A stretch of 64,000 nucleotides of DNA from an uncultured Candidatus Binatia bacterium (GTDB taxonomy: Bacteria > Desulfobacterota > Binatia > UBA9968 > JAJDTQ01), in assembly GCA_965204205.1 (NCBI GenBank), contig OZ241976.1, forward strand, positions 2,343,333-2,407,332, written 5' to 3'. The position numbers and the translations under genes were made by a program. Shown one piece after another: positions 1,977 through 60,777 of this stretch (its first letter is position 1; each line of letters starts with the position of its first letter). The notes beneath the pieces were generated by a model. The model was not told the origin of the DNA. It saw only the letters and a list, made by a program, of their open reading frames with translations, and searched no databases.

Positions 1977-2136
1977 GTGTCCTGTCCGGTCAATTAGCAC
2001 AATAATCTGCGGGTCTTTTTCGCCGTCGGCGGCGTTGCTCTTCCTCGCGTGGTGCCCGCCACAGCTCGTCATCGCGCCTTGCCGACAACGAAAAATCCTC
2101 CGCATATTATCATGCCAATTTAACCGGACAGGACAC
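1977..2136. repeat. 160-bp MITE-like element with 14-bp perfect terminal inverted repeats (GTGTCCTGTCCGGT ... ACCGGACAGGACAC), abutting IS5 copy A
   Basis: TIRs read directly at 1977-1990 and 2123-2136. The internal 2030-2136 segment recurs at 40025-40155. Confidence 0.4.
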
Positions 2137-10942: not shown

Positions 10943-10961
10943 GGCGACGGCTCCGAGCACC

Positions 10962-19424: not shown

Positions 19425-19686
19425 GTGTGCTTCTCGACCTCCTGTGGAGTGGCTGTGTCCTGATCCCTGTCCGGCGGCGGTGTCGGTGGTGAACGGGCGC
19501 GGACGCGCTGAAACCGGCCCTTGCACCTCGTGTCGGACACGGGCGGGATTGAGAACCCGTCCCTACAATTAGATGAAATAGGCGCGGATGTCCAGGTTGA
19601 CACCCGGCCACGGCGGACCTATACGGGCTATAGGCCACGGACCGCCGGTTTCCGCGCGACATCGGTCCCGGCCCGGAGGCGGATGC

Positions 19687-21135
19687 ATGACGAGCGAACC
19701 AAGGGACGTCGAAGCGGCCCTGAACCTGCGGACCTTCATCGAGCGGCTCAAGCAGACGGGGAAGCTCAAGGAGGTACGGAACGCCCACTGGGACCTGGAG
19801 ATCGGCGCGCTCACCGAGATCGGCGCGGAGTCCGAAGGACGCCCGGCGCTGCTGTTCGACGCCATTCCGGACCACCCCGAGGGCTACCGCGTCCTCAGCA
19901 ACGTTCTCAGGTCCCCCGAGTCCGACGCCCTGGCCCTGGGCATGTCGCCGGACGTCCGCGGTCTCGACGTGGTCCGGGCCGTCAAGAGCCGGCTCCAGGA
20001 CCTGAAACCCATTCCCCCGGCGGAGATCGGCGAATCGCCGCTGCTGGAGAACGTCGCCTTCGACGGCGATGTCAACGTGCTCAAGTTCCCCACTCCCAAG
20101 TGGCACGCGGACGACGGCGGCCGCTACATCGGCACCTTCACCGCCACGGTCTGCCGCGATCCCGACACCGGCTACGTCAACGTCGGCACCTACCGCGTCC
20201 AGGTCCACAACGAAAACACCCTGGGCGTGTGGATGATCGCCGGAAAACACGGCGACCTCATCACCCGGAAATACTGGGCGCGGGGGGAAGCGTGTCCCGT
20301 GGCCATCATCTGCGGCCTCCCCCCGGGAATGATGACCGCGAGCGCGGTGGGCATCCCCTGGAACATGAGCGAGTACGACTTCCTGGGCGGAATGCTGCAG
20401 ACCCCGGTACCGGTCATCAAGGGACAGAAGACCGGGCTGCCGGTACCTGCGTTCGCGGACATCGTCCTCGAAGGGTCCATTCCGCCCCCGGAGCAGGAGA
20501 CCCACGAGGAGGGGCCTTTCGGCGAGTGGCCCGGATACTATGCGTCCGGGTCGCGGCAGGCTCCAGTGGTCAAGGTGGAAGCCGTCTATCACCGTAACGA
20601 CCCCATCATCACCGGCGACCCGCCGCTCAGGACCTTCCTCAACAGCGAGACCCACAAGTACATCCGCTCCGCCAACATCTGGTCGGCGATGGAGCGCGCG
20701 GGCATTCCCGAGGTGACCGGGGTGTGGTTCCCGGGTCAGGGGCGCTTCATGGTGACCGTCGCCGTCAGGCAGCGCTACTCGGGCCACGCCAAGCAGGCCG
20801 GTTACGGCGTCCTCGCCACCCGCGACGGCGGCCGGGACGTGCGCATGGTCATCGTGGTGGACGAGGACGTGGACATCACCAACACCGCCGAGCTGCTCTG
20901 GGCCATGTCCACCCGCTGGGACCCCAGGGCCGACTCCGAGATCCTCGACGTGGCCGCGAGCATCCTGAACCCGCGGCTTTCGCCGGAAGACAAGCAGCGC
21001 CGGGAGCTGACCACCTCGTGCATGGTGGTGGACGCGTGCCGGCCCTACAGTTGGAAGGACGCCTTCCCGAAGATCTCCGGCACCAGCGCGGAGTACAAAG
21101 CCGAGATCCTCGCTAAGTGGGGGGACCGGTTGTGA
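19687..21135 (+). CDS. UbiD-family (prFMN-dependent) aromatic acid decarboxylase
   Basis: About 480 aa with conserved UbiD middle-domain motifs (RY.G...G..G; GPFGEW.GYY). Start at MTSEPRD. Confidence 0.85.
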   Translation: MTSEPRDVEAALNLRTFIERLKQTGKLKEVRNAHWDLEIGALTEIGAESEGRPALLFDAIPDHPEGYRVLSNVLRSPESDALALGMSPDVRGLDVVRAVKSRLQDLKPIPPAEIGESPLLENVAFDGDVNVLKFPTPKWHADDGGRYIGTFTATVCRDPDTGYVNVGTYRVQVHNENTLGVWMIAGKHGDLITRKYWARGEACPVAIICGLPPGMMTASAVGIPWNMSEYDFLGGMLQTPVPVIKGQKTGLPVPAFADIVLEGSIPPPEQETHEEGPFGEWPGYYASGSRQAPVVKVEAVYHRNDPIITGDPPLRTFLNSETHKYIRSANIWSAMERAGIPEVTGVWFPGQGRFMVTVAVRQRYSGHAKQAGYGVLATRDGGRDVRMVIVVDEDVDITNTAELLWAMSTRWDPRADSEILDVAASILNPRLSPEDKQRRELTTSCMVVDACRPYSWKDAFPKISGTSAEYKAEILAKWGDRL

Positions 21136-21235
21136 CCCGGGCGGTCGGCGCCCACGCCCGGTCTCCCCGCAGGGAGACACGCCCATGAGATGCCCGTTAC
21201 GATTCGCGGCGGCGTAGGGGGTCGGAGGAAACCGC

Positions 21236-21964: not shown

Positions 21965-22045
21965 GTCGCCGTTACGGCGGCCGGCGCCGTAGAAGGCGCC
22001 GTGAGACGCGGAACCGGCCGCTGAGCCCGACAGGAGTCCGTTGAC

Positions 22046-22753: not shown

Positions 22754-22780
22754 CGGCAACCAACGCGTGGACGCCATTTT

Positions 22781-22803
22781 GGGGGCGACCCGCGGTCGCC
22801 CCC
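22781..22803. repeat. REP-like palindrome GGGGGCGACCCGCGGTCGCCCCC
   Basis: Same family, immediately 3' of the paralog 2 stop. Confidence 0.5.
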
Positions 22804-22842
22804 GACGGAGAAAGGCACCAAGGGCCACGTAGGGAGACGACC

Positions 22843-23880: not shown

Positions 23881-23897
23881 AGTCGTGGCGAGGGCAA

Positions 23898-23919
23898 GGG
23901 CGACCGGCCGGTCGCCCCT
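23898..23919. repeat. REP-like palindrome AGGGCGACCGGCCGGTCGCCCCT
   Basis: Same family. First of two copies between the GDO stop and the next gene. Confidence 0.5.
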
Positions 23920-23958
23920 ACGAGTTCCCGTCCGCAATGCGGACCCCGGAGCGAAGGT

Positions 23959-23980
23959 AGGGGCGACCGGCGGTCGCCCT
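23959..23980. repeat. REP-like palindrome AGGGGCGACCGGCGGTCGCCCT
   Basis: Same family, 40 bp from the previous copy. Confidence 0.5.
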
Positions 23981-24048
23981 TGCGGGGTTCCGCCGCAACG
24001 CAAGGTCCCGGAGATCAGGCCCGTAACCCGCAGTAAGGAGCATTCACC

Positions 24049-27016: not shown

Positions 27017-27028
27017 GGTATCCCCTTC

Positions 27029-29146: not shown

Positions 29147-29166
29147 GTTCCTGCGAGCTTGCCGTG

Positions 29167-30318
29167 TCAGCCGCGGAGCTTCGGGACATTGGCGAGCGAC
29201 AGCACGAGCTGTACCAACTCCATCTGCCGGGATATCCGGTGCTTTTCGAAGATTCGTTTGATGTGCCAACGGACGGTGTTTTCGCTCCGCCCCACGGCAT
29301 CCGCGATGCTGCGGATGGTGTTTCCCTCGGCCAACAAGACCGCAACGCGGCTTTCGGCCGGTGTGAGGTCCAGTGTGGCCGCGACCAGTCTCGGATCGAT
29401 GGGTGCCCGATTGAGCGGATCGACCACCAACACGAGCGCGGCAACGTGCCTGGGGAACAAGTCCATCCGTCCTCCGTTCGTGGGGGTGACGTGCAACACG
29501 AGCCGCGGCGAAAGAAGCGAGCGTGTCACCACCATCGACCCGCCAATGCGCTGAACGCCGAAGGGCGGGAGCGCGCGTGCCAAAAGCTCCTGGAGGCGGA
29601 CGTCGTCTTCCGCCGAGGAGGCGTGCAGGAAACCGCCCTGGTCGGCCAACCCGTCGCCTCTGCGCAGGAGGTCAAGGGCATAGTCGTTGACCGCCACGAT
29701 CCGTCCACGCCGGGCAAGTTGAATGACGCCGACCCTCATGTCCTCAAGCAGCGCGGCGTGTGACGAGCCCAGCGCATTGGCATCCACGAGCGCCTGTCTG
29801 GCGCGCACGAATTGACGAAGGTGGGGCAGAAGGCCCTTGATCGTCCGGACCTGAGAGGACGACCAGCCGTCCGGCTCCACGGGATCGGCGATTCCCCAGC
29901 CGATGTGGGACCCGCCCGGGCCATCGAGACGCACGCTGAGGCTGTTCCGAGCCTCAAAGAGGGGCAGCACCTCGTTGTATACGATCGATGTCCTTGCCTC
30001 CTGGGCGGTGAAGAGCGAGGAGACGTGTACCAGTTGGCTGTCCGGCCGATGTTGCATGCGTGGAATGCGTTCATCCACGGACCAGTAGAACTTGAAGTAA
30101 AGACGCTCGAAGTCTTGGTGGCGTTTCCCCTGGCTGCAATATCGAGAAAGGAGGATGTCGAAGTCACGTTGAGTTGTTCCCTGGGCCAAGAACAGAAAGT
30201 TGCCCTTTGCGCCGCAGGCTTCATCGATGAGGGCACCGGTTGCAGGCCATTGGGAATCGTCGAACACCGCTTCGTGAAACGACACCAGGATTCGCTGCAT
30301 CAGGTCTTGTCGACCCAT
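29167..30318 (-). CDS. LuxR-family transcriptional regulator with large N-terminal sensor domain
   Basis: C-terminal HTH LTPAESRVAVLLAEGNTIRSIADAVGRSENTVRWHIKRIF. Start at MGRQDLM with a GGAG RBS. Confidence 0.75.
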   Translation of the reverse strand: MGRQDLMQRILVSFHEAVFDDSQWPATGALIDEACGAKGNFLFLAQGTTQRDFDILLSRYCSQGKRHQDFERLYFKFYWSVDERIPRMQHRPDSQLVHVSSLFTAQEARTSIVYNEVLPLFEARNSLSVRLDGPGGSHIGWGIADPVEPDGWSSSQVRTIKGLLPHLRQFVRARQALVDANALGSSHAALLEDMRVGVIQLARRGRIVAVNDYALDLLRRGDGLADQGGFLHASSAEDDVRLQELLARALPPFGVQRIGGSMVVTRSLLSPRLVLHVTPTNGGRMDLFPRHVAALVLVVDPLNRAPIDPRLVAATLDLTPAESRVAVLLAEGNTIRSIADAVGRSENTVRWHIKRIFEKHRISRQMELVQLVLSLANVPKLRG

Positions 30319-31588: not shown

Positions 31589-31713
31589 GGATGATCCTCC
31601 TCCCGTGGCGTGTTACCACAAATCGCGCGTGCGTGCCCTCTCGCTCCCAGGAAAACCATCGGGCTTGCCAGTCCGGCGCGACTGTGCGAGAAGTGAAGCC
31701 GGAGGGTACGATC

Positions 31714-32844
31714 ATGAGCGACCGAATCATCTCTGCCGACGGACACATGGACCTCTTCTACCTCGACGAGGACACCTTCCGGTCCCGCGCTCCGGCGAAC
31801 CTGAAGGACCGCGTGCCCAACGTGCGCACGGTGGAAGGCAAGCCCACGTGGGTGGGCGACGGCGCGTTGATGGGCGGGCATCGGGCGTGGATGGGCCGAC
31901 AGCCCATGACCAACCACCGCGGTCGTAGAATGCGGGAGGCCGGGTGGGAGCCCACGCACCCTTCGGATCCCGGGCTGCGAGCCAGAGACCTCGACATCGA
32001 CAACATCGCGGCCGAAGTCATCTACGGCATCCGTTTCGTAGAGGACAGCATCAAGGACCCGGACGTGATCACCGCCACCTACCGGGCCTACAACGACTTC
32101 ATTGCCGAGTTCTGCGAGTACGACCCCAACCGCTTCATCGGCATCGCCGACATCCCCGCGCATTCCGCCGACGCCGCGGCGGCGGAGATTCGCCGCATCG
32201 GGAAGAACGGGCTCGGGCTCAAGGGCGCGCTGTTCGACTTCTTCAACGGCCCCGCGTCCATCTGGCACGAGATGTGGGAACCCATGTGGGCCGCGGCCGA
32301 GGAGGAGGAAGTGGCGCTGTCCTTCCATATCGGCGCGGGCCACGGCACCACCACGGTCGGCCCCCGGAGCGCGGAGGAAAAGCTCAGGGGGGATATCCCG
32401 AAGGTTTCCCGGGAAGCCCACGTAGCGGTGGTGGCCATGCAGGCCGACGAGTGTCTCGTGTCGATCATCCTGTGCGGCGCCCTGGAGCGCCATCCCGCCC
32501 TCAAGGTGGTCATGGCGGAAAGCCACATCGGCTGGATCCCCTACGTGCTGGAGCGGCTCGACACCAAGTTCGGGGAAGGCGAGTACGAGGGCCTGATCAG
32601 CACGCCGCCGAGCGCGCTGTTCCGGCGCCAGATGTGGGCCACCTTCCAGGACGACAAGGTCGGCGCCCACCTGGCCGAGGAGTATGCCCCGGAAAACTTC
32701 TGCTGGGCTTCCGACTATCCGCACCGGGACGGGGTCTGGCCCGATTCCCAGGAGTTCATCGCGCACACCATGGGCGGGCTGAGCGAGAAGATGCGCCGGC
32801 GGCTAACCGCGGACAACGTGGCGCGGCTATACGACATCCAATAG
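31714..32844 (+). CDS. Amidohydrolase_2 (PF04909, ACMSD/LigW-like metal-dependent hydrolase or decarboxylase), copy A
   Basis: Starts ISADGHMD (HxH-type metal ligand). TIM-barrel amidohydrolase pattern with a D near the C-terminus. GGAGGG RBS. Confidence 0.8.
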   Translation: MSDRIISADGHMDLFYLDEDTFRSRAPANLKDRVPNVRTVEGKPTWVGDGALMGGHRAWMGRQPMTNHRGRRMREAGWEPTHPSDPGLRARDLDIDNIAAEVIYGIRFVEDSIKDPDVITATYRAYNDFIAEFCEYDPNRFIGIADIPAHSADAAAAEIRRIGKNGLGLKGALFDFFNGPASIWHEMWEPMWAAAEEEEVALSFHIGAGHGTTTVGPRSAEEKLRGDIPKVSREAHVAVVAMQADECLVSIILCGALERHPALKVVMAESHIGWIPYVLERLDTKFGEGEYEGLISTPPSALFRRQMWATFQDDKVGAHLAEEYAPENFCWASDYPHRDGVWPDSQEFIAHTMGGLSEKMRRRLTADNVARLYDIQ

Positions 32845-43777: not shown

Positions 43778-44947
43778 CTACTCCAGGATGCGGGAACCGA
43801 ACAGCGTCACCGCGTTGTCCCACAGGATCTTGGCCTTGGCCTCGTCCGGTATCGGTTGCGCGTCCAGGTCCGGCAGCGCCTTCTCCGGCCGCGGCGCGTC
43901 CGGATGGGGATAGTCGGTGTTCCAGGCGATGTTGTCCCCGCCCAGGTGGTCCACCGCGTAGGACAGCGCGCTCTCGTCGCTGTCGCAGGTCACCGTGATC
44001 TGGCGCTTGAAATACTCGCTCGGCAGCATCGGCAAACGCTCCACCGCGTTGCCCATGACGCTGTTGCGCCCATGGGTATGCTCATCCATCCGGCCGAGCC
44101 AGAAAGGCACCCAGCCGACGTTGGACTCGAGGATCCCCAGCCGCAGCTTGGGGAAACGCTCGAGGATGCCGGTGAAGATGAACTGTCCCATGGTGGCCAT
44201 GTTGTCGCACGGGAAACCCAGGGCGTGGTCGAGACCCCGCAGCGCCAACATCTGCATGTCGCGATCGTCCACGTTGCCGCGGTTGCCGCCGGCGAAGGGA
44301 TGGAAGCGGCGCTGACGGTACTCGCCGTGAACCGAAATGGGGAACTCCAGCTCGCAGGCCAGTTCCCACAGCGCGTCGTACTCGGGCTCGTGCAGCCAGC
44401 GGCCCTCGGGCAGGAACGGGTTCCGCACGGACACCGCGCCCAACTCGTCCACCGCCCGCCGCGCCTCCACCAGCATGGCGTCGGTATCCGATCCCGGAAG
44501 CACGGCGACGAACTTGAGGCGCTTGGGGTCTGCGTCGCAGTAGTCCCGGCACCAGTTGTTGTAGGCCCGGCACATGGCCGCCCCGAGCTTGGCGTCCTTC
44601 AGCGCCACCCGGTAGGCGAAGTTGCCGTTGTTGCCCGTGGGCAGCAGCACCTGCACGTCCCAGCCGTGCGTGTCCATGTCCTTGAGCCGGGTTTCCGCGG
44701 ACCACCACGTGCGGTACCCGTCGCCGTACTTGGCTTCCATGTCGGCCCACGCCGTGGCGGGCAGCTTCGGCTGCTTCTCGGTCTTGGGGATGATCCGCCC
44801 ATCCGGCTCGTAGACCATGAAGGCGCCGTCCATGAACGCCACCTTGGGCACCTGGTCCCGGTACGCGGGCTCGACGTAGCGCTCCCACAGGTACTGCGGC
44901 TCGTGCATGTGCGCGTCCGCGTCCATCACCTTGAATCCCTTCCACAT
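43778..44947 (-). CDS. Amidohydrolase_2 (PF04909) family protein, copy B
   Basis: N-terminal MDADAHMHEP metal-ligand motif. AAGGAG RBS. Confidence 0.8.
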   Translation of the reverse strand: MWKGFKVMDADAHMHEPQYLWERYVEPAYRDQVPKVAFMDGAFMVYEPDGRIIPKTEKQPKLPATAWADMEAKYGDGYRTWWSAETRLKDMDTHGWDVQVLLPTGNNGNFAYRVALKDAKLGAAMCRAYNNWCRDYCDADPKRLKFVAVLPGSDTDAMLVEARRAVDELGAVSVRNPFLPEGRWLHEPEYDALWELACELEFPISVHGEYRQRRFHPFAGGNRGNVDDRDMQMLALRGLDHALGFPCDNMATMGQFIFTGILERFPKLRLGILESNVGWVPFWLGRMDEHTHGRNSVMGNAVERLPMLPSEYFKRQITVTCDSDESALSYAVDHLGGDNIAWNTDYPHPDAPRPEKALPDLDAQPIPDEAKAKILWDNAVTLFGSRILE

Positions 44948-46558: not shown

Positions 46559-47845
<1,287 letters not shown>

Positions 47846-47857
47846 TGGAAAGGATGC

Positions 47858-47881
47858 AGGGGCGACCGGCCGGCCGCCCCT
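47858..47881. repeat. Degenerate REP-like palindrome AGGGGCGACCGGCCGGCCGCCCCT
   Basis: Same family with one stem mismatch. Between the amidohydrolase C stop and the rSAM start. Confidence 0.4.
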
Positions 47882-47898
47882 GCGATTTCAACCGCCGC

Positions 47899-48759
47899 TC
47901 AATCCATGCCGAAGAACTTCTTGGCGTTGTCCAGCATGAGCTTCTGCTTGACCTCGGGCTTGATGGTGATCTTCTCGAAGTCGTCCAGCCAGCGCTCCAC
48001 GCCGATGGCCGGCCAGTCGGACCCGAACATGGCCTTGTCCTGCAGGATCGAGTTCACCTGCTGAATCAGCTCGGCCGCGAAGTACTTGGGCGACCAGCCC
48101 GACAGATCGATGTAGAAGTTGCTCTTGTGCCGGGCGATGGCCAGGCTCTCGGCCGTCCAGGGCCACGACGGGTGAGCGCAGATGATCTTCAGCTCGGGGA
48201 AGTCCGCGGCGACGTCGTCCAGGTGGATGGGCTGGGTGAACTTGAGCTTGTTGCCCATGCCGCCGGGGGTGCCGGCGCCGGCGCCGGCCATGCCGCTGTG
48301 GAACAGGATCGGCAGCTCGAGCTTCTGGCATTCCTCCCACAGGGGATAGAAGCGCGTGTCGTTGGGGAAGAACTGCTGCCGCGCCGGGTTGATCTCGCCC
48401 ACGCCGTGCAGGCCCATGTCCTTGATGCGCCGGATCTCCTGCAGCGCCACCTTCTGCTGCCACGGATCGATGACGCCGAAGCCCAGGAAGACGTCGGAGT
48501 TCCGCTTCACGCCGTCGGCCACGTGCTCGTTGGGCACCGGTTTCAGCCCCGTGATGGTTTCGTCGGTGGTGTTCTGAATCACCGCCATCATGTTGCGCGC
48601 GCGGTACTCGTCCGCCATCTCGTCGATGGAAACCGGCTTGCGTTCCCGCTTGAAGTACTGGGCCATCTGCTTCGGGCGGTCGCCCTTGGAGCTCAGGGTC
48701 AGCTCGTCGCAAAGGTGTACGTGCACGTCAATGGCAATCGGGTCCGTAATCGGGTCCAT
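47899..48759 (-). CDS. Amidohydrolase_2 (PF04909) family protein, copy C
   Basis: Starts IDVHVHL (HxH). 286 aa. AGGAGG RBS. cat confirmed at 48757-48759. Confidence 0.8.
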   Translation of the reverse strand: MDPITDPIAIDVHVHLCDELTLSSKGDRPKQMAQYFKRERKPVSIDEMADEYRARNMMAVIQNTTDETITGLKPVPNEHVADGVKRNSDVFLGFGVIDPWQQKVALQEIRRIKDMGLHGVGEINPARQQFFPNDTRFYPLWEECQKLELPILFHSGMAGAGAGTPGGMGNKLKFTQPIHLDDVAADFPELKIICAHPSWPWTAESLAIARHKSNFYIDLSGWSPKYFAAELIQQVNSILQDKAMFGSDWPAIGVERWLDDFEKITIKPEVKQKLMLDNAKKFFGMD

Positions 48760-48875
48760 GCTTCCTCCTTGGGGGTTTCTCGAAAGTCGAAGGGCGCCGT
48801 GACAACAGAGTTTCCCTAGCACGATCCGCAATGGCTGGCCAGTGCATCACGCGGCTCGGGAATTGAAGTGCCTGC

Positions 48876-49361
48876 CTATTCCTCCCAGGGCGCGGCGGTC
48901 AACGCGTTGAGGGCATTGTCGAGCATCCGCCGCATGAACTCGGAGTTGCTGCCCTCGTTCAACTCGTAGCGCACGCCGGTCACGATCGTCACACCCTGCT
49001 CCTGGTCTTCCAGCACCGTGTGAAGCTCCACCTGGAACAGCGCGAAGGGGGTGTCGTCCAGCCGCTCCCGGGTCCGCGTGGCATTGCCCTTGAGGTAGTA
49101 GTTGAGGCCGTGGTCGGTGACCACCAGGGTCAGCGCGCCGGTGCGCACGAGGTTCCTTTCCGTGGTGCTGTTCTTGCCCACGGCCAGGTGGATGCGTCCC
49201 GGGCTCTTGGCCACCAGCTCGTAGTAGGAGCCCATGGCCGGGTGGCACCAGCCGGTCTCGTCCACCGTCGCCATGATGAAAACCTTGCCGGCTTCGACGG
49301 CCTTGCCGCTCATCAGCGCGAACAGGTCGTCCGGCATTTCTTTGCCCACTAGTCGTGACAC
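48876..49361 (-). CDS. Pyridoxamine 5'-phosphate oxidase-family (FMN-binding split-barrel) protein
   Basis: 161 aa, PNPOx-like beta-barrel pattern. GTG start with a GGGAGGA RBS 7 nt upstream. Confidence 0.65.
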   Translation of the reverse strand: MSRLVGKEMPDDLFALMSGKAVEAGKVFIMATVDETGWCHPAMGSYYELVAKSPGRIHLAVGKNSTTERNLVRTGALTLVVTDHGLNYYLKGNATRTRERLDDTPFALFQVELHTVLEDQEQGVTIVTGVRYELNEGSNSEFMRRMLDNALNALTAAPWEE

Positions 49362-49421
49362 GATGCGATCCTCCCTGTCTCGATGCGGTCCCAGGCCCGC
49401 CGCGGTTCCGGTCCGGCGGCG

Positions 49422-49895
49422 TCAGTCCTTGCCCAGGGCCAACTCCTGCCTCTTGCCGAACCCTTGCTGATTGTCGATGTAGTACAAGGTCTCCGGAATC
49501 ACGCGGTAGAACTTCACCTTGAGAAACGCCCGGTGATAGACCCCGCTCGAAGGGTCCGTGAACAGCTTGATGACGCCGGGGTATTTCCGCGCGTAGACCG
49601 CCATGGCCTTGGCCTTGGTCACCACTGAATCCACCAGCTCCACGGTCCCCTCAAGCTGGATACCCTTGATCTCTCGCCAGTCCTTGTAGTCCTCCTGGAC
49701 CGTCACCGCTACCCGCGGGTTGGCCGCGAGATTGGTACAGTGACGCGAGTCCGGGGCGGAGAAGAAATAGAGATGGAAGCCGTCGCTGGCGTAGAACACC
49801 GTGGCATTCCACGGCGCCCCGTCCGCGCAGGTGCCGAGGGTCATGGTGTTGTGGGTCCGGAGGTAGTCGAGGACCTGTTCCTCAAGATCGGCCAT
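49422..49895 (-). CDS. Pyridoxamine 5'-phosphate oxidase-family (general stress protein 26-like) protein
   Basis: 157 aa from MADLEEQVLDYL. Motif NATVFYASDGFHLYF resembles the PNPOx split barrel. An alternative TTG start lies 7 codons upstream. Confidence 0.65.
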   Translation of the reverse strand: MADLEEQVLDYLRTHNTMTLGTCADGAPWNATVFYASDGFHLYFFSAPDSRHCTNLAANPRVAVTVQEDYKDWREIKGIQLEGTVELVDSVVTKAKAMAVYARKYPGVIKLFTDPSSGVYHRAFLKVKFYRVIPETLYYIDNQQGFGKRQELALGKD

Positions 49896-49990
49896 GTGTA
49901 GAAAGGCTCGGGACAAACGGTTGCGAAACCGTTTCCCGTTGGTCCTGAGCGTAGCTCCGCGTCAGCGGAGCGAAGTCGGAGGACGACAAA

Positions 49991-50584
49991 CTACCCCTCG
50001 TCTCCGGGATAGCGGCTCAGGGACTCCTCGTCCCACCGGTGGAACATGTCGGTCTCGATCTCGAACTGGTCCAGGATGCGCGCCACGGTCTGGTTGATGA
50101 CGTCGTCCAGGGTCTTGGGGCGGTGGTAGAAGGCCGGCACGGGCGGAAAGATCACCGCGCCCATGCGGGTGAGCTGGGCCATGCTTTCCAGGTGGCCCAG
50201 GTGGAGCGGAGTCTCCCGGGCCACCAGCACGAGCTTCTTCCGCTCCTTGAGGATCACGTCGGAAGCGCGCACCAGCAGGTCGCCCCCCACCGACAGCACG
50301 ATGCCGCCCATGGACTTCATGGAGCACGGCGCGATGACCATGCCGGCGGTGCGGAAGGATCCGCTGGCGATGCTGGCGCCGATATTGTTGATATCGTGCA
50401 CTACGTCGGCCAGCCCCTCCACTTCCTTCACCGAGTGCGGCGTCTCCACCTGGGCGGTCATCTTGGCGGCCTTGCTCATCACCAGGTGGGTCTCGACGTC
50501 CGGCATCCTCGCCAGCACCTGGAGAATGCGGATCCCGTAGATGGATCCGGTGGCCCCTGACATGCCTACGATGAGACGACGCAT
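49991..50584 (-). CDS. ubiX: Flavin prenyltransferase UbiX
   Basis: N-terminus MRRLIVGMSGATGSIYG and 197 aa, as in canonical UbiX/Pad1. TAGGAGGT RBS. Confidence 0.9.
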   Translation of the reverse strand: MRRLIVGMSGATGSIYGIRILQVLARMPDVETHLVMSKAAKMTAQVETPHSVKEVEGLADVVHDINNIGASIASGSFRTAGMVIAPCSMKSMGGIVLSVGGDLLVRASDVILKERKKLVLVARETPLHLGHLESMAQLTRMGAVIFPPVPAFYHRPKTLDDVINQTVARILDQFEIETDMFHRWDEESLSRYPGDEG

Positions 50585-50597
50585 ACTGACTTACCTC

Positions 50598-51023
50598 CTA
50601 ACCGTCGAACACCACGGTCAACTCGTCCCCGTCCCGCACCGAGTGGGCCTGCTTGAACGAAACCGCGGCGATGAGCTCCAGCTTGTCGGCCGGGTATTCC
50701 GCCACCTCCGGCACCACCACCGCGACACGCTCCCGCGCTCTCGCGCCGGACTCCCATCCCTGGACAAAGCCCGTGAACAGGAAGGCGTTGCAGAAACCCG
50801 GATCCGGCGCCGGCAGGACGAACTTGCCGGCGTGTCGCCGGACCTCGCCCCACCGGGTGAGGTCGGCGCCGTCGGCGCGAATATTCAGCGTGCCGGGATA
50901 GGGATCGAAGCCCACGCGCTCGCGGATGGCCTTCCGCACCCAGTCGATGCCCACGAACGCCCCGGCCCGGCCCAGGTCCGAGAACACCACCCCTCTCACC
51001 CGGTTGTCGCGGGAACCGTTCAC
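50598..51023 (-). CDS. DUF120 / CTP-dependent riboflavin kinase-like protein (archaeal-type RFK fold)
   Basis: 142 aa. The motif GVVFSDLGRAGAFVGIDWV...GFDPYPGTLNI matches my recollection of the PF01982 PGTLN signature. GTG start overlaps the upstream xdhC stop (GTGA). Confidence 0.5.
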   Translation of the reverse strand: MNGSRDNRVRGVVFSDLGRAGAFVGIDWVRKAIRERVGFDPYPGTLNIRADGADLTRWGEVRRHAGKFVLPAPDPGFCNAFLFTGFVQGWESGARARERVAVVVPEVAEYPADKLELIAAVSFKQAHSVRDGDELTVVFDG

Positions 51024-51793
51024 TTGTTGCCGGAGAGGGACCGCGCCTTGCCGCCGCGCCGGACCTTGATGACCTCGCCCAGGATACCCAGCGCGATCTC
51101 CTCCGGAGTCTCGGTGGCGATGTCGAGCCCGATGGGCGCATACACCCGGGAGATGAGCTCCTCGGAAACGTGCTCCTCCTCCTTGAAGCGCTCGAAGCAG
51201 GCCTTGATGCGCCGCTTGCTGCCGATCATGCCGATGTACTTGGCCGGGCGGTCCAGCAGCTCGCGCAGACACGGCTCGTCGTACTTGTGGCCGCGGGTGA
51301 TGAGCACCACGTAGGTGGTCGGCGTGATGTCCATCTCCTTCACGGTCTCGGCCATGTCCCCCACCACCACCTCGTCGGCGTCGGGGAACCGCTCGCGGTT
51401 GGCGAAGAGGATGCGGTCGTCGATGACCACCACGTGGTAGTCCATGAGCTTGGCGATCCTGACCAGGGGCACGGCGATGTGGCCCGCTCCGACCACGACC
51501 AGCTTCGGCGGGGACGGCATGGCCTCGAAAAAGACGTCCGCCTGGCCTCCCGTCGAGGTCTCCACCGACACCAGCCGGGAGCGCTCTTCCGAGAGCCGCT
51601 CCGCCGCCTCCTGCAGCAGCGTCCGTTCGAGCTCCGCGTCGTTCACCTCTCCCAGAACGATGCGGCCGTCCCGGATGAGGCACTTGGCGCCGCTGTCGAA
51701 GCCGTCGAGGCCCTCGGACTCCACCACGGTAACGAGCACGGCGCCCGCGCCTTCGCTCTTGATCCTGATCAGCTCTTCAACCAGCGCGTCCAT
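51020..51793 (-). CDS. XdhC-family molybdenum-cofactor insertion chaperone, C-terminal (Rossmann-like) half
   Basis: Motif VVVGAGHIAVPLVRIAKLMDYHVVVIDDR, typical of XdhC_C. Confidence 0.8.
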   Translation of the reverse strand: MDALVEELIRIKSEGAGAVLVTVVESEGLDGFDSGAKCLIRDGRIVLGEVNDAELERTLLQEAAERLSEERSRLVSVETSTGGQADVFFEAMPSPPKLVVVGAGHIAVPLVRIAKLMDYHVVVIDDRILFANRERFPDADEVVVGDMAETVKEMDITPTTYVVLITRGHKYDEPCLRELLDRPAKYIGMIGSKRRIKACFERFKEEEHVSEELISRVYAPIGLDIATETPEEIALGILGEVIKVRRGGKARSLSGNK

Positions 51794-51835
51794 TCATCGT
51801 GACCCTGTCACTCACCGGCCATCCGGCGCGGTAAC

Positions 51836-52165
51836 TCAATCGCCTTCCTGGTCCTTCCACCACGGATCGATGAAGACGTTCATGATGCCGCCGCACACCG
51901 CCGGGCTGTCGGACGAAATATCGTCCAAAAGGTCCACGCGCACGGTGCGTGGCTTGCGGGTCCGCACCACCTCGATGGCCTCGCGCCGGACGTCGGCCTC
52001 GCCGCATCCGCCGCCGATGGTGCCGAGGATCTCGCCCCACGCCGTCACCACCATCTTGGCCCCGACCTCCCGCGGCGTCGAGCCCTTGGTGGAGACGATG
52101 GTGGCCACCGCCACGGTCTCGCCCTTTTCGAGGAACTCCTTCACGTCGTCGTAGATGTCTTCCAT
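51836..52165 (-). CDS. XdhC/CoxI N-terminal domain protein (split XdhC)
   Basis: 109 aa with the motif ATIVSTKGSTPREVGAKMVV...GTIGGGC, typical of the XdhC_CoxI domain. Encoded separately from the C-terminal half. AAGGAGG RBS. Confidence 0.7.
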   Translation of the reverse strand: MEDIYDDVKEFLEKGETVAVATIVSTKGSTPREVGAKMVVTAWGEILGTIGGGCGEADVRREAIEVVRTRKPRTVRVDLLDDISSDSPAVCGGIMNVFIDPWWKDQEGD

Positions 52166-52245
52166 CGATGCCTCCTTGCGGCGTTCCGCCTGCTCCGCGA
52201 GCCTGGCGGCCTCCGAGAAAGTAACGCCATTTCTCGGATCATCTC

Positions 52246-53466
52246 CTACGCCACCAGCCTGCGCATGGTGTGGCCGAGATGGACCAGGCTGTTGGCGTTG
52301 TGCGCCGACAGGAACAGGTCCAGGTACGGCAGCGCCGCCTGCATGCCCTTGCACAAAGGCTCGTAGTTCTCGCTGGCCAGCAACGGATTGAGCCAGATCA
52401 TCTTGCCGCAGCGCCGCTTGAGGGCCTGCATCTGCCGCTCCAGCACCCCCACGTCGCCCCGGTCCCAGCCGTCGCTGATGATGACCACCACGGTGCGGTG
52501 GGTGACCATGCTGACCGCGAAGTCGCGGTTGAAGATCTCCAGCGAGCGCCCGATGTTGGTGCCCCCGGACCAGCCCAGCACGCTCTTGGAGATCTTCTCC
52601 AGGGCGTTGCCGATGTTCTTGGTGCGGATCAGGTGCGTGATGCGGCTCAGGGTGGTGCTGAAGACGAAGGTCTCCACGCCCCACAGCTCGTTCTGCAGGC
52701 CGTACATGAACTGGATCAGGAAGCGGCTGTAGCAGTCCATGGAGCCGCTCACGTCGCACAGCAGCACCACCCGCGTCTTCTTGATGCGGCGCTTGCGCGC
52801 CACCAACTCCACCAGCTCGCCGCCGTACTTGATGTTGCGGCGCATGGTGCCGCGGGGGTCGATCTCGGTGCCCCGCCGCGCGCGCTTCTTGCGCCGGCTC
52901 ACCTGGGTGGCGATCTTCGAGGCGATGAGCAGGATGGCCTGGGTCACGGCCCGGCTCTCCTCGATGCCCATCTCGCTGAAGTCCTTCTCGTTGAGCTGCT
53001 CGTTGGGACTGTAGGTGGGCACCATCAGCGGGTCGGGGTCGTCGGGCCCCTGGTCGTTGGCCCCCTCCTGCTCGGTCAGGGTCTCTTCCACCGTGCCGCT
53101 GCCGTCGTCGGATGAATCCAGCGCCTCGTCCGGACTCTGGGCCGGGACCTCCATGGTCTCGATGCCTTCTTCGATCTCCATGTCGCCCTGCCAGAAGGCG
53201 TCGAACACCTGGTCGAAGAGCTCGAGGTCCTCGTGGTCGTGCAGCAGGTTGGCGGCCAGCGCCCGGTGGAAGTCCGGCCGGCTCTGGATGTCGATGAGCG
53301 GCAGCGAGCGGTTGGCGTCGATGACCTGGCTCAGGCCGAGGCGGAAACCCAGGTCCTTGAGCACCCGGCCGAACATCAACATGTTCGCCAGCGTGCCCTG
53401 TCCGCGCAAGGGCTTGTAGCGCTCCACCGCGCGGACGATGTCTTGTTCGTTCAGCTCTCTCGCCAT
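52246..53466 (-). CDS. coxE: VWA-domain protein CoxE-like
   Basis: C-terminal VWA/MIDAS motif LLCDVSGSM. Acidic low-complexity central linker. Adjacent to the MoxR ATPase, as in cox accessory clusters. Confidence 0.8.
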   Translation of the reverse strand: MARELNEQDIVRAVERYKPLRGQGTLANMLMFGRVLKDLGFRLGLSQVIDANRSLPLIDIQSRPDFHRALAANLLHDHEDLELFDQVFDAFWQGDMEIEEGIETMEVPAQSPDEALDSSDDGSGTVEETLTEQEGANDQGPDDPDPLMVPTYSPNEQLNEKDFSEMGIEESRAVTQAILLIASKIATQVSRRKKRARRGTEIDPRGTMRRNIKYGGELVELVARKRRIKKTRVVLLCDVSGSMDCYSRFLIQFMYGLQNELWGVETFVFSTTLSRITHLIRTKNIGNALEKISKSVLGWSGGTNIGRSLEIFNRDFAVSMVTHRTVVVIISDGWDRGDVGVLERQMQALKRRCGKMIWLNPLLASENYEPLCKGMQAALPYLDLFLSAHNANSLVHLGHTMRRLVA

Positions 53467-53585
53467 GCTCCGTCCCTGTTACATGCTCCCCGTTCGTCCC
53501 GAGCCCTTCGTACAGGCCTGTCCTGGGCTTGTCGAAGGGCTCGGGACAGGCTTCGCGAAGCGAAGTCGAAGGGCATGACGGACTC

Positions 53586-54512
53586 CTATCCCTGCCCGCC
53601 CACCACCGTGGCCGGCTCCTTCAGGATGCGGTCCATGTCGAGCTTGTCGCCGGAGATCTCTTCCTCCAGGTGGTGCAGGTCCTCCCGGTACTTGAACACG
53701 CAGCCCACCGTCTCCTTCACGGTCTCCGGGTCCAGCTCGGCCCGGTTCAGGAGCAGCAGCGCCGACGCCCAGTCCAGGGTCTCGGCCACGCCCGGCCGCT
53801 TGTAGAAGTTCATCTGCCGCACCTGCTGCATGAACGCGCAGATCTGCTCGGCCATGAGCCTCTGGATCTCCGGGTGCTTGGTCATGATGATCTCGTACTC
53901 CTTCTCGAAAGTGGGGTACTCGATCCAGTGGTAGAGGCAGCGGCGCTTCAGCGCGTCGTGGATCTCCCGGGTGCGGTTGGAGGTCAGGAACACGTAGGGC
54001 CGCTTCTGCGCCTGGATGGTGCCCACCTCCGGAATGCTGATCTGGAAGTCCGACAGCACCTCCAGGAGGAACGCCTCGAACTCCATGTCCGCGCGGTCGA
54101 TCTCGTCGATGAGCAGCACCGGGGGCTCGGCGCCGTCGGTGCGGATGGCGTCCAGCAGCGGCCGGCTGATGAGGTACTCCTCCGAGAAAATCTCGGTCTC
54201 CACCGACTCGCGGTCCCGGGAGCCGATCTCCTCCAGCTTGATGCGCAGCATCTGCTTGGGGTAGTTCCACTCGTAGAGCGCGGTGTTGGAGTCCAGACCT
54301 TCGTAGCACTGGAGCCGGATCAGCCGGGTCTGGAGAACGTCCGCAAGCACCTTGGCGATCTCGGTCTTGCCCACGCCCGCCTCCCCTTCCAGCAGGATGG
54401 GCTTCCCCAGCCGCACCGAGAGGTAGACCACGGTGGCGAGGCTCCGGTCGCAAATATACTTGCGCTCCCTCAGGGAATCCCGGATCGATTCGACGGAAAT
54501 GCTGTCCAGATT
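53586..54512 (-). CDS. coxD: MoxR-family AAA+ ATPase (CoxD-like)
   Basis: Walker A GEAGVGKT, Walker B LLIDEIDRA. 308 aa from MNLDSISVE. Confidence 0.85.
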   Translation of the reverse strand, partial: NLDSISVESIRDSLRERKYICDRSLATVVYLSVRLGKPILLEGEAGVGKTEIAKVLADVLQTRLIRLQCYEGLDSNTALYEWNYPKQMLRIKLEEIGSRDRESVETEIFSEEYLISRPLLDAIRTDGAEPPVLLIDEIDRADMEFEAFLLEVLSDFQISIPEVGTIQAQKRPYVFLTSNRTREIHDALKRRCLYHWIEYPTFEKEYEIIMTKHPEIQRLMAEQICAFMQQVRQMNFYKRPGVAETLDWASALLLLNRAELDPETVKETVGCVFKYREDLHHLEEEISGDKLDMDRILKEPATVVGGQG

Positions 54513-54600
54513 CATGCGTATCCCTTCTTCGCGGACGGCCCCGTGATCTTGTGATTGCTTTTGATACGCGGCGGCGGCCACATGGACCGTGCGCGGCGGC

Positions 54601-54933
54601 TTACTTGTTCTCGGCGAGCTGCCGTTTCCACCCCAGGGTCCTGGCCTTGGCGCCGACGGCTTCGGCCTCCTCGATCATCCCCTTGCGCTGGTAGAAGATG
54701 GAAAGGCTCGTGTAGGCCAACTCATCGTCGGGGCTCACCTCGATCAGACGCTTGCCCACCTCGATGGCCTCATCCAGACGGTCGGTATTCGCGTACGCCA
54801 TCCCCAGGGCGTGCAGCGCGTCCGCATAGTCGGGGTCGTCGGCCAAAGCCTTGTTGTAAGACTCGATGGCCTCGTCCACCCGGTCGTCGGCATACGCCTC
54901 CATGCCCTGGATGTAATGGTCCTCTTTCGTCAT
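54601..54933 (-). CDS. Tetratricopeptide-repeat protein
   Basis: 110 aa, three TPR-like repeats (AYANTDRLDEAIEVGKRLIEVSPDD...). Confidence 0.65.
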   Translation of the reverse strand: MTKEDHYIQGMEAYADDRVDEAIESYNKALADDPDYADALHALGMAYANTDRLDEAIEVGKRLIEVSPDDELAYTSLSIFYQRKGMIEEAEAVGAKARTLGWKRQLAENK

Positions 54934-56235: not shown

Positions 56236-57537
56236 CTAGCAGGTTGTTGAAAAGGTCCGTCTGACGCGGGTACATATTTTGTATGTTCGTACTGGGACGG
56301 AGGAGTCGATGAGAGGCACTGATCCGCGTCAAGAAGGCATGTTCAGCTATGTGTCGCCGGAAGCCCGTGTTCCCAAGGACCATCCGTTGCGACCGATCCG
56401 GGAGATGGTGAACCGGGCGCTGGAAGATCTGTCCGGGGAGTTGGAGGCGATGTACTCGCACACGGGGCGGCCTTCGATCGCGCCGGAACAGTTGCTGCGG
56501 GCGTTGCTGTTGCAGGTGCTTTACTCGATCCGCAGCGAACGGCTGTTGGTGGAGCAACTGGACTACAATCTTTTGTTCCGTTGGTTTGTGGGACTGTCGA
56601 TGGACGAGGCGATGTGGGACCACTCGACGTTCACGAAGAACCGGGAGCGGTTGATCGGCTCGGACATCGCCCGGGAGTTCTTTGCGAAGATCCTGGTGCA
56701 GGCGCGTGACGCCCGGCTCTTGTCGGATGAGCACTTCAGCGTGGATGGCACGCTGCTGGAGGCGTGGGCGTCGATGAAGTCGTTTCGCCCCAAGGGGGGC
56801 GCGGGACCGCAGGGCGGCGGCGGGCGCAACGCCGAGGAGGACTTTCGGGGGGAGAAGCGCAGCAATGCGACCCATGAGTCTACCACCGATCCGCAGGCAC
56901 GGCAGTACCGCAAGGGCAAGGGGCAGGAGGCGAAGTTGTGCTACCTGGGGCATGCCTTGATGGACAACCGCCATGGACTGATCGTCGATACGCGCACCAC
57001 CCAGGCCAGCGGACGGGCTGAGCGGGAGTCGGCGCTGGCCATGATCGAGGCGCGACCCGGCAAGGGCCGGCTCACCGTGGGTGCGGACAAGGGGTACGAT
57101 ACCCGTGACTTTGTCGAGGGGTTGCGCTGGGCGAACGCGAGTCCTCATGTGGCACAGAACGACACCAACCGGCGTTCGGCCATTGATGGCCGCACCACCC
57201 GCCACCCTGGCTACGCTCACAGCCAACGGGTGCGCAAGCGGATCGAGGAAGCCTTCGGATGGGCCAAGACCGTCGGCGGGTTGCGCAAGCTCAAGCATCG
57301 GGGGCTTCCGAAGGTGGGCTTCCAGTTCACCCTGACCTTCGCGGCCTACAATCTGGTGCGGCTGCGCACCTTGGGAGTGGGCACGTGACCACACTTCCTG
57401 TGGAGGCGTGCGTCTGCGCCACGGTCGTTGGCATGAAAAGGCGTGCGAATGACCTCTATCCCAGCCCGTCGAGGGTCCGATTCCCTTTGCATCAGTCACC
57501 AACACTCAAATCCGTGGGTTTTTCCACGGCCTGCTAG
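56236..57537 (+). mobile_element. IS5-family insertion sequence, copy B (inverted relative to copy A)
   Basis: Same termini as copy A, with CTAG at 56236-56239 and 57534-57537. One mismatch to copy A over the 80-bp left end compared. Confidence 0.85.
56279..57388 (+). CDS. IS5-family DDE transposase
   Basis: 369 aa. About nine residue differences from the copy at 2285..3394. Confidence 0.9.
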   Translation: MYVRTGTEESMRGTDPRQEGMFSYVSPEARVPKDHPLRPIREMVNRALEDLSGELEAMYSHTGRPSIAPEQLLRALLLQVLYSIRSERLLVEQLDYNLLFRWFVGLSMDEAMWDHSTFTKNRERLIGSDIAREFFAKILVQARDARLLSDEHFSVDGTLLEAWASMKSFRPKGGAGPQGGGGRNAEEDFRGEKRSNATHESTTDPQARQYRKGKGQEAKLCYLGHALMDNRHGLIVDTRTTQASGRAERESALAMIEARPGKGRLTVGADKGYDTRDFVEGLRWANASPHVAQNDTNRRSAIDGRTTRHPGYAHSQRVRKRIEEAFGWAKTVGGLRKLKHRGLPKVGFQFTLTFAAYNLVRLRTLGVGT

Positions 57538-59455: not shown

Positions 59456-60777
59456 CAGTAGTGTCCGACACATTTCATAGCAAAACCAGTTGGTTACGGT
59501 CACCGGGGCTTTCTGGCGGCGCGGGCGTACCGGTAAGTAGCTGAATCAAGGGGACTTTTTCGAAAGGCGTAACGCTGAGGATCTGTAGCATCACATGCAA
59601 GGAGAGGTCGAGATTGAGACGTTTCTTGATGATAGCAACCAGCACGTAAACGGCGACGGCGATCCAGATTTGGCTTTTGACAGCGTTCTCGGAGGTGCCA
59701 AAAAAGCGCTTGATGCGGAGATGTTGTTTGATCCACTTGAAGAACAACTCCACTTGCCAGCGGCTCTTGTACAGAGCGCACACGCTCAGGGCGGGGATGG
59801 CGAAGTGGTTGGTCAAGAAGACCAGTGTTTTGCCTGTATCGGGGTCTTTGAAGCGGATGCGACGGAGCCTGTCGGGATAGGCGCGGCGGGAGTCGATCAC
59901 GGTCAACCGGACTTGCTGGTCGCAGATAAGCCCGGTGGTGCGATCGACGGGGGCAGAGTAGATCCTTTTGCACCGGAGGTTGGATTTGGCACGAGTGACG
60001 AAGAAGGCGCCCGTGCGGTGCAGGACATGCAGCCGTTGGAAATCGAGGTAGCCCCGGTCCATCACGTAGAAGGCGCCCGGTTCGGGCAACAGGACGTCCA
60101 GCACGTGGACATCGTGCAGTTTTCCGTCCGAGATGAAGATAAAGGCCGGGATGGCGCTGCGCAGGTCCAGCAGCGTATGCAGCTTCACGGCCGCTTTGGT
60201 CTGGCGGAAAGGCGCCCATGGAAAAAGCGACAAGCACAAGTCGATGGTGGTGGAGTCCAGGGCATAGACCGTGTTCGCCAAGTCCACGGCCAACGACTCG
60301 TGCGCATACAGTCGTCGCGCCATGCGGATCAGCGCCTGAGGAACTCGCAGTGAATGCGCCAGTCCCGCGCTTCGTTGGCGTCGGCCAGGTTGCTGCGCGT
60401 CACATTGCCTCGGATACCCAAGTGATAGAGCTTGCCCGGCTGTGCCCCAAGACACGCTTCGATATCCCGCAGGCTCTCCCGGTAGGTCAGTTGCGCAACC
60501 GCCATGCACAGAAACTGATCCAGACACCGAAAGGTACGCACGTTGAAATCCCCTCGGTACGTCCTCACCAGGCGACGAAACGTATGCCATGGAGCAAACT
60601 CCATCACCTGGGCGAACACAAGCTTTCCTGCGTGCATGGCCACCTCCCGGATCAAACCGGGAAGTCTGCCAAACTCCGATCTCGCCGTCCAAATCGGTTA
60701 CACCCTCAAAACTCACAAATATCGTGTCATTTCAGTGGGTTACAGGTTGACGCGAGCCAACGTGTCGGACACTACTG
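59456..60777 (-). mobile_element. IS4-family insertion sequence with 16-bp perfect terminal IRs (CAGTAGTGTCCGACAC) and 9-bp target-site duplication GGCTCCACT
   Basis: IRs read at 59456-59471 and 60762-60777. Direct repeats at 59447-59455 and 60778-60786. Confidence 0.8.
59475..60655 (-). pseudogene. IS4-family transposase (DUF4372 N-terminal region plus DDE_Tnp_1), frameshifted
   Basis: N-terminal 108-aa ORF (60329..60655) carries MHAGKLVFAQVMEFAPWHTFRRLV. The C-terminal frame (59475..about 60340) carries the YKSRWQVELFFKWIKQHL YREK signature. The two frames meet near 60330-60345. Confidence 0.75.

Follow-up and report, generated by a model that had tools for sequence, protein, structure and literature searches.

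What is a gene of an archaeal-type riboflavin kinase family doing in a bacterium, directly upstream of the gene for a flavin prenyltransferase? The question is raised by a 64,000-nucleotide stretch of contig OZ241976.1 from an uncultured Candidatus Binatia bacterium (here called the window), in which a short gene of the Pfam family PF01982 (CTP-dep_RFKase/DUF120) lies between a gene of the XdhC chaperone family and ubiX. A preliminary description of this DNA had suggested from its position that this DUF120 gene channels flavin mononucleotide (FMN) to the synthesis of prenylated FMN (prFMN).

Sequence comparison, a structure model and gene context, on which all functional statements below rest, point to an answer. 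The DUF120 protein probably phosphorylates riboflavin to FMN, or binds and hands over flavin, for UbiX, as part of an operon for the supply and maturation of prFMN. A role in prFMN synthesis is strongly supported by comparative genomics, because the gene is linked to ubiX in several gene orders, co-occurs with genes for PhdC-like proteins, type-2 isopentenyl diphosphate (IPP) isomerase (IDI-2) and NUDIX hydrolases, and takes part in gene fusions.

The DUF120 gene and its host

The gene in question is the following.

50598..51023, minus strand: PF01982/DUF120 riboflavin-kinase-like gene, 141 residues plus stop, translated without interruption

The coordinates given in the preliminary description are exact, and the two motifs quoted there, GVVFSDLGRAGAFVGIDWV and GFDPYPGTLNI, are both present in the translation. 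Its account of the flanks also holds. The GTG start (51023..51021) overlaps the TGA stop of xdhC (51022..51020) in a shared GTGA (51023..51020), and at the other end the TAG stop falls inside the sequence AGGAGG that serves ubiX as ribosome-binding site, at a distance of 13 nt from the ubiX ATG. Signals for translational coupling, the xdhC overlap and the ubiX Shine-Dalgarno sequence, are thus present on both sides of the gene.

The open reading frame (ORF) finder lists a longer frame here, of 361 amino acids (50598..51683). GC content at the three codon positions is coding-like in 50598..51023 (0.71/0.47/0.89) and not in the upstream part of the frame (0.95/0.68/0.39). Coding-type GC is confined to the last 426 nt, and therefore 50598..51023 are the right coordinates and the 361-residue ORF was rejected as an artefact of a GC-rich frame. 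Homologues (n = 131) start at the same position and are of equal length; close ones are 70-96% identical and 141 residues long, and the length is conserved down to 35% identity. The ratio of non-synonymous to synonymous substitution rates (dN/dS) against five relatives is 0.24-0.38, indicating purifying selection.

Long overlapping ORFs do run through several frames of this region, and the preliminary description had itself raised the prospect that the ORF is a by-product of GC-rich DNA. That this is a chance open frame and no gene is nevertheless next to impossible and has already been refuted: the Pfam match has an E-value of 2e-21, coding-type GC at third positions occurs in this frame and span only, dN/dS is below 0.4, homologues keep their length to 35% identity, and the protein gives a confident fold model. 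The element at 50598..51023 is a real gene of 141 codons.

The host is a bacterium, because the closest DUF120 loci come from metagenome-assembled genomes (MAGs) of Candidatus Binatia and genes for a TonB-dependent receptor and for a beta-barrel protein of the outer membrane are present in the window.

Family, fold and conserved residues

Membership of PF01982, first proposed from the motifs, is confirmed by a near-full-length profile match, which spans positions 1-119 of the 121 in the profile and scores 76.6 bits (E 2.1e-21) where the cutoff is 25. The comparison with MJ0056 suggested in the preliminary description also supports it. A profile built from the DUF120 family matches only solved riboflavin kinases, namely MJ0056 (E 9e-13) and T. 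acidophilum (Ta) RbkR (E 1.5e-7). The AlphaFold2 model of the protein (pLDDT 88.8) superimposes in Foldseek on the cradle-loop barrel of MJ0056 (2vbu) with TM-scores of 0.79/0.84 and a root-mean-square deviation of 2.5 Å, and each of the seven Foldseek matches with E <= 0.001 is either MJ0056 or RbkR.

Residue roles were taken from the work on RbkR and RibK (PMC5397151) and mapped through two independent alignments; numbering is that of the full-length protein, with Met1 encoded by the GTG. In archaeal RibK/RbkR, the YxGTLN loop contacts phosphates and metal through Ta T131, L132 and N133, and E195 is the proposed catalytic base (PMC5397151). The corresponding loop of the window protein is Y42-P-G-T45-L46-N47, with T45, L46 and N47 matching the three Ta residues. 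The GTLN part of this loop is intact in every complete bacterial homologue and departs only in one frameshifted and one truncated sequence (L002 and L079); one archaeal locus (L082) has Asp in place of the Asn. E116, the counterpart of E195, is found in every complete homologue, and the truncated L079 is the sole exception. Six Ta residues contact FMN (Y109, Y115, F165, P185, Y190 and E195), of which Y115 and E195 were called ‘absolutely conserved’ (PMC5397151). The contacts Y109, F165, P185 and Y190 are kept as F23, F77, P105 and Y110 of the window protein. Beside Phe77 stands Cys78 (codon 50790-50792), which is invariant in 78 of 78 bacterial homologues examined and absent from MJ0056, Ta RbkR and most archaeal relatives.

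Linkage of DUF120 to ubiX

Relatives were sought in one genome per species across 185,579 species. At least 514 occur among the matches listed, archaea included. The rarity in bacteria assumed in the preliminary description needs qualifying: in Binatia, and in bacteria that degrade aromatic compounds anaerobically, such genes are not particularly uncommon. Gene order was analysed in 80 loci (75 bacterial, 5 archaeal), which are the relatives nearest to the query, retrieved with peptide patterns biased towards its subfamily, and onto which the proteins of the window operon were mapped by tblastn. The gene ubiX adjoins DUF120 in 65 of the 75 bacterial loci and in none of the 5 archaeal ones; contig ends truncate two of the bacterial exceptions. 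The linkage comes in at least four architectures, including XdhC-DUF120-UbiX, UbiX-DUF120 and DUF120-UbiX(-UbiD), and the taxon labels of the loci span Binatia, Beta- and Alphaproteobacteria, Chloroflexota and Nitrospinota. The loci fall into the following types.

12 loci: window-type architecture
about 28 loci: MoxR-VWA-XdhCN-XdhC-DUF120-UbiX-IDI-2-PNPOx-PNPOx (sister clade)
about 24 loci: UbiD(1-3)-UbiX-DUF120-(NUDIX)-(PNPOx), in Betaproteobacteria and one Nitrospinota MAG
3 loci: DUF120-UbiX with UbiD nearby, in Chloroflexota and one alphaproteobacterium
5 loci: DUF120 fused to a HAD phosphatase
8 loci: DUF120 alone (5 archaeal and 3 bacterial)

In the window itself the gene belongs to a same-strand run with short gaps (46559..54933), made up, in the order of transcription, of genes for TPR, MoxR, VWA, XdhC-N, XdhC, DUF120, UbiX, two PNPOx-fold, Amidohydrolase_2 and radical SAM proteins. 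A promoter and terminator scan of this operon found no signal above chance that would interrupt the run. The partners of DUF120 are listed here.

54601..54933, minus strand: small TPR protein, first gene of the run (TPR families; same position in the 12 window-type loci)
53586..54581, minus strand: MoxR/CoxD-like AAA+ ATPase (PF07728 and PF00004; NCBIfam MadB_ATPase 275 bits, below its cutoff of 475)
52246..53466, minus strand: CoxE-like VWA protein (PF05762, 210.7 bits)
51836..52171, minus strand: stand-alone XdhC/CoxI N-terminal domain protein (PF02625, 91 bits)
51020..51793, minus strand: XdhC-family cofactor-insertion chaperone (PF13478, 148.9 bits, and PF02625; NCBIfam XdhC_rel_AOR 212 bits, below its cutoff of 350)
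49991..50584, minus strand: ubiX, flavin prenyltransferase (PF02441, 127.6 bits; NF004685, 271.6 bits, cutoff 188)
49422..49916, minus strand: YhbP-like PNPOx-fold (FMN-binding split-barrel) protein (PF01243, 65.1 bits)
48876..49361, minus strand: PhdC-like protein, candidate prFMN oxidative maturase (best PDB match 9srg, PhdC)
47899..48831, minus strand: Amidohydrolase_2 protein (PF04909, 162.4 bits; only in the tail of the window-type operon)
46559..47845, minus strand: radical SAM/SPASM protein, last gene of the run (TIGR03942, 464.8 bits, cutoff 349; Pfam matches)

The above-cutoff NF004685 match bears out the earlier assignment of the downstream neighbour to UbiX. In the sister clade an IDI-2 gene (TIGR02151, 413.7 bits, cutoff 281.3) stands between ubiX and the PNPOx genes, and the last two genes of the window-type run, Amidohydrolase_2 and radical SAM/SPASM, are absent from the operons. 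The radical SAM/SPASM protein resembles anaerobic sulfatase maturases, with a score above the threshold, and has a SEC-C zinc motif at its C terminus.

A third setting of the gene pair is the end of phenylphosphate carboxylase (ppc) clusters. In Ca. Desulfobacillus denitrificans and in a cultured phenol degrader, Azoarcus sp. KH32C, these run pps, ppcBDAG, UbiD, UbiX, DUF120, followed by a NUDIX gene in KH32C or a PhdC-like gene in Ca. Desulfobacillus, and then by 4-hydroxybenzoate-CoA ligase. The KH32C genes UbiD, UbiX, DUF120 and NUDIX lie on plasmid pAZKH (L088; NC_020548.1, 139976-141574), where the DUF120 start overlaps the ubiX stop (ATGA). A NUDIX gene lies 3' of DUF120 in 14 further Betaproteobacterial loci. 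NUDIX hydrolases make dimethylallyl phosphate (DMAP) from dimethylallyl diphosphate (DMAPP), and the one behind DUF120 may supply DMAP. Around the DUF120-HAD fusions, and around the three bacterial genes that stand alone, the neighbouring genes are heterogeneous and show no pattern.

These gene orders bear on two further explanations. In the first, DUF120 would act with XdhC in maturation of the molybdenum cofactor (Moco), for example in a CTP-dependent step towards a cytosine dinucleotide cofactor, with ubiX a bystander. MoxR AAA+, CoxE-like VWA and XdhC proteins are normally maturation factors of molybdenum hydroxylases; all four such genes lie upstream of DUF120 in every window-type and sister-clade locus, xdhC overlaps it, the variant loop SDLGxA is confined to XdhC-linked loci, and archaeal relatives bind CTP or CDP. 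The idea is nonetheless highly improbable, because what the lineages have in common is UbiX and not XdhC. The DUF120-ubiX linkage occurs in about 25 loci without any XdhC, while XdhC-linked DUF120 loci always carry ubiX, except on one contig that ends directly after DUF120. No molybdenum-hydroxylase subunit was found among the window ORFs scanned, and none of the fusions in the sample examined, to IDI-2, PNPOx, HAD or MFS proteins, involves a Moco protein. The MoxR, VWA and two XdhC-type genes (51020-54933) share an operon with DUF120, UbiX and PhdC-like genes in about 40 genomes (L003-L046, L083-L086), and no molybdenum-hydroxylase gene lies near the set in the window or in L083.

In the second explanation, DUF120 is the general riboflavin kinase of the cell, an archaeal-type stand-in for what RibF does as a kinase, and nothing is to be read into its place next to ubiX. 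It would accord with membership of PF01982, a family with a housekeeping kinase role in archaea (PMC5397151). A tblastn search with E. coli RibF found no homologue, either in the window or across the 1.46 Mb of related loci, a result that is uninformative at about 20 kb per genome. Such a housekeeping replacement is very unlikely given the catabolic and plasmid contexts, the KH32C copy being plasmid-borne inside a catabolic cluster. Moreover, the gene lies beside ubiX in various gene orders and lineages, accompanied by PhdC-like, IDI-2 and NUDIX genes, the protein evolves fast for a housekeeping enzyme, and many carriers are Betaproteobacteria, which generally possess ribF. DUF120 is probably an accessory to RibF and not its replacement, because Proteobacteria generally have ribF.

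Gene fusions

Among 1.84 billion representative proteins, a profile search detected 1,886 DUF120 family clusters, of which the best 150 were examined for fusions. Among these are an IDI-2-DUF120 fusion, whose IDI-2 part scores 347.9 bits against a cutoff of 281.3, and fusions of the types DUF120-PNPOx, HAD-DUF120, DUF120-HAD, low-molecular-weight phosphatase-DUF120 and MFS transporter-DUF120. The fusion partners of DUF120 thus echo its operon partners. The fusion proteins are P0126, P0144, P0149, P0150, P0169, P0171, P0193, P0200, P0225 and P0240, and the fusion loci L057, L062, L070, L073 and L076.

An apparent XdhC_C-DUF120 fusion (P0069, from L002; ENA ERZ25069580 ctg93576_5x_l, 10001-11295) was rejected as a frameshift artefact, because the 5x-coverage long-read contig also splits ubiX in two.

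The PNPOx-fold neighbours

Experiments have characterised PhdC as a prFMN maturase; in M. fortuitum its gene stands with those for a UbiD and a UbiX (PMC13040415). The top PDB match of the protein at 48876..49361 is PhdC (9srg), at E 0.0055 with the single sequence and E 4.5e-9 with a profile of its orthologues, copies from ppc clusters included, the next unrelated match being at 0.012. A search with a local hidden Markov model gave E 2e-7. The YhbP-like protein (49422..49916) shows no detectable relation to PhdC, and its relatives in a PDB search are uncharacterised structures only; it shares 50% identity (E 6e-50) with the C-terminal half of P0169, a DUF120-PNPOx fusion.

Departures from the archaeal kinases

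Several observations weigh against a riboflavin kinase dedicated to UbiX, some in the protein itself and others in the sampling and physiology. The scores fall short of the NCBIfam equivalog cutoffs for RibK (NF040694 ribK_Meth, 42.9 against 168 bits; NF010762, 52.1 against 279 bits). The archaeal Gly-rich polyphosphate loop is S-G-x-G-E-G-R, with Ta G102, G104 and G106 ‘highly conserved’ (PMC5397151), and the window protein has S15-D16-L-G18-R19-A20-G, in which Asp16 replaces G102 and Ala20 replaces G106. The cytidine-contacting Ta L202-R203 correspond to F123-K124 (L-K in the clade), a conservative change in which the Arg is lost. In both alignments, the flavin contact Ta Y115 falls on Val29, with a near-invariant Trp28 just before it. 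The gene is also less constrained than its operon neighbours (whose dN/dS is 0.03-0.2) and evolves faster, being 40% identical where UbiX is 77% identical. A dN/dS of 3 for the first PNPOx gene of L003 was discarded as an alignment or frameshift artefact. As for the sample, the peptide patterns used for retrieval favoured the subfamily of the query, and the taxon labels of some MAGs may reflect misbinned short contigs. Finally, should the genome have ribF, a second riboflavin kinase would have no evident purpose.

The loop variant follows the genomic setting. The exchanges to Asp16 and Ala20 occur in nearly all XdhC-linked loci, the combination of SDLGxA with Lys124 occurs only there, and the UbiX-linked Betaproteobacterial homologues keep the canonical SGxGEG loop (as SGLGEG) and the Arg. 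By sequence, the window protein is a genuine PF01982 member and a derived variant, not an ortholog-grade RibK. The preliminary description of an archaeal-type kinase in a bacterium accordingly stands for family and fold, and fails for the RibK equivalog cutoffs and the canonical nucleotide loop. Because of the altered nucleotide loop, the exchange of Arg for Lys, Cys78 and the sub-equivalog scores, we only infer kinase activity. The phosphoryl donor of the archaeal relatives is CTP, and its use by the window clade would, for the same reasons, be by analogy.

The same departures could mean that the protein serves the prFMN pathway by binding flavin and is not a riboflavin kinase at all. It might carry FMN or reduced FMN to UbiX or to the XdhC-type chaperone, or phosphorylate another substrate, such as a dephosphorylated prenyl-flavin in salvage or a prenol to give DMAP. 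The replacement of SGxGEG by SDLGRA and of R203 by Lys in the window clade, the replaced Tyr115 contact, the low equivalog scores and the constraint weaker than that of the neighbours would all fit, as would a Cys78 that is invariant in bacteria, sits by Phe77 and is missing from MJ0056 and Ta RbkR. Non-catalytic helpers that bind prFMN do exist, for example LpdD (PMC10865409). We regard this explanation as unlikely, though it deserves to be taken seriously. The presence of T45, N47 and the base E116 in every complete homologue is hard to explain for a mere binder, and a small prenol substrate is made less likely by the survival of four of six flavin contacts (F23, F77, P105 and Y110). Furthermore, the relatives in Betaproteobacterial UbiX-DUF120 clusters retain SGxGEG and the Arg, and the MFS-DUF120 fusion would suit a protein that takes up riboflavin and traps it.

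A proposed route to prFMN

UbiX requires reduced FMN and DMAP, which it converts to reduced prFMN (FMNH2 + DMAP -> prFMNH2). If DUF120 is a riboflavin kinase working for UbiX, it would make FMN from riboflavin, and UbiX, encoded 13 nt downstream, would prenylate the reduced FMN with DMAP to give prFMNH2. The prenyl arm, as dimethylallyl (mono)phosphate, may be supplied in sister operons by IDI-2, NUDIX or a fused HAD phosphatase. The PhdC-like protein would then oxidise prFMNH2 to the active iminium form, and the YhbP-like split-barrel protein may have some flavin-handling role. The matured prFMN would serve UbiD-family (de)carboxylases, for which the window offers one candidate.

19588..21135, plus strand: UbiD-family (de)carboxylase, candidate prFMN client (PF01977, PF20696, PF20695; TIGR00148, 269.3 bits, cutoff 244.85)

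This is the nearest UbiD gene in the window, 29 kb from DUF120. It is flanked (18828-25164) by genes for a methyltransferase, two Haem_oxygenas_2/TENA-like proteins and a cupin, which is not a recognised aromatic-acid decarboxylase cluster.

A bolder version of this route concerns the upstream genes. The nine-gene Binatia-type module, in the order MoxR, VWA, XdhC-N, XdhC, DUF120, UbiX, IDI-2 (in some genomes), YhbP-like and PhdC-like, could be a self-contained cofactor factory, whose molybdenum-type chaperones were recruited to load prFMN or a modified flavin into apo-UbiD. The XdhC-coupled loop variant of DUF120 (Asp16, Ala20, Lys124, Cys78) would be the entry point, and might use a donor other than CTP or pass flavin on directly. 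To our knowledge, chaperones of the XdhC/MoxR/VWA kind are known only from molybdenum-hydroxylase maturation, and we consider this version speculative and rather unlikely to be correct.

Relation to known systems

Archaeal RibK MJ0056 (PDB 2VBU/2VBV) and the kinase domain of RbkR (5TRD) share with the window protein the Pfam family, the fold, the GTLN loop and the proposed catalytic Glu. The window protein differs from them in its bacterial host, its predicted prFMN operon in place of a housekeeping role, its SDLGRA loop, Lys for Arg203, Val with an adjacent Trp for Tyr115, the extra Cys78 and its sub-equivalog score. Bacterial RibF, an ATP-dependent riboflavin kinase and FMN adenylyltransferase, carries out the reaction proposed here (riboflavin to FMN); it shows no tblastn similarity to DUF120, is a housekeeping enzyme, and also makes flavin adenine dinucleotide.

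The phdA-phdB-phdC operon of Mycolicibacterium fortuitum, encoding UbiD, UbiX and PhdC (PMC13040415), has the same coupling of UbiX with a PhdC homologue as the window. As described, it contains no kinase, IDI-2, NUDIX or XdhC/MoxR/VWA genes, whereas the window operon has no adjacent UbiD. The ppc clusters of the denitrifying Betaproteobacteria Azoarcus, Thauera and Aromatoleum contain a UbiX-DUF120 pair homologous to that of the window, with NUDIX next in KH32C and the 14 further loci and, elsewhere, a PhdC-like gene present or behind NUDIX. They differ from the window in the reversed order (UbiX before DUF120), the retained SGxGEG and Arg, the adjacent UbiD and the lack of XdhC/MoxR/VWA genes.

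The plant protein AtFMN/FHy joins a HAD-type FMN hydrolase to a riboflavin kinase. The HAD-DUF120 and DUF120-HAD fusions share this layout of phosphatase plus flavokinase, although the kinase fold differs (eukaryotic RFK versus PF01982) and the window protein, unlike AtFMN/FHy, is unfused. In the UbiX context, the HAD part of the fusions could instead make DMAP from DMAPP.

Other features of the window

An insertion sequence (IS) element with a DUF772/DDE_Tnp_1 transposase is present in two inverted copies (2136-3437 and 56236-57537), with 97% identity across 1302 bp. Behind the second copy comes a stretch of lower GC content (57.5-60.7 kb, GC 0.51-0.58) with another DDE transposase (59475-60716); this insertion is missing from the syntenic loci L001 and L002. 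The window further encodes, on the plus strand, a class I Glu/Gln-tRNA synthetase of 782 residues with a C-terminal GatB/YqeY domain (7981-10329) and, on the minus strand, a hydantoinase B/hydantoinase A pair (oxoprolinase or acetone-carboxylase-like) beside a LuxR-type regulator (25193-29269). Besides the operon gene at 47899-48831, there are two more Amidohydrolase_2 genes (31591-32844 and 43778-44947).

Significance

UbiD-family enzymes catalyse demanding (de)carboxylations, in the activation of phenol, phthalate and probably benzene and naphthalene, in ubiquinone synthesis and in routes to bio-based chemicals. Many of them are not obtainable in active form in heterologous hosts, where prFMN supply and maturation are limiting, and the prFMN helpers known so far are few (UbiX, LpdD and PhdC/YclD). 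The physiological role predicted here for DUF120 appears to be new, since RefSeq names the Azoarcus homologue WP_015451796.1 merely ‘DUF120 domain-containing protein’, a literature search turned up no paper that connects DUF120 or riboflavin kinase with UbiX or prFMN, and many genes neighbouring UbiD are of unknown function (PMC10865409). It also offers a testable role for unannotated ORFs in the long-studied gene clusters for anaerobic phenol degradation.

If the prediction is true, the kinase completes a toolkit that, with the NUDIX, IDI-2 or HAD and PhdC-like genes, leads from riboflavin and IPP/DMAPP to prFMN, and co-expression of this toolkit could activate recalcitrant carboxylases. PF01982 kinases have been viewed as confined to Archaea (PMC5397151), a view that a dedicated bacterial flavin kinase of this family would revise.

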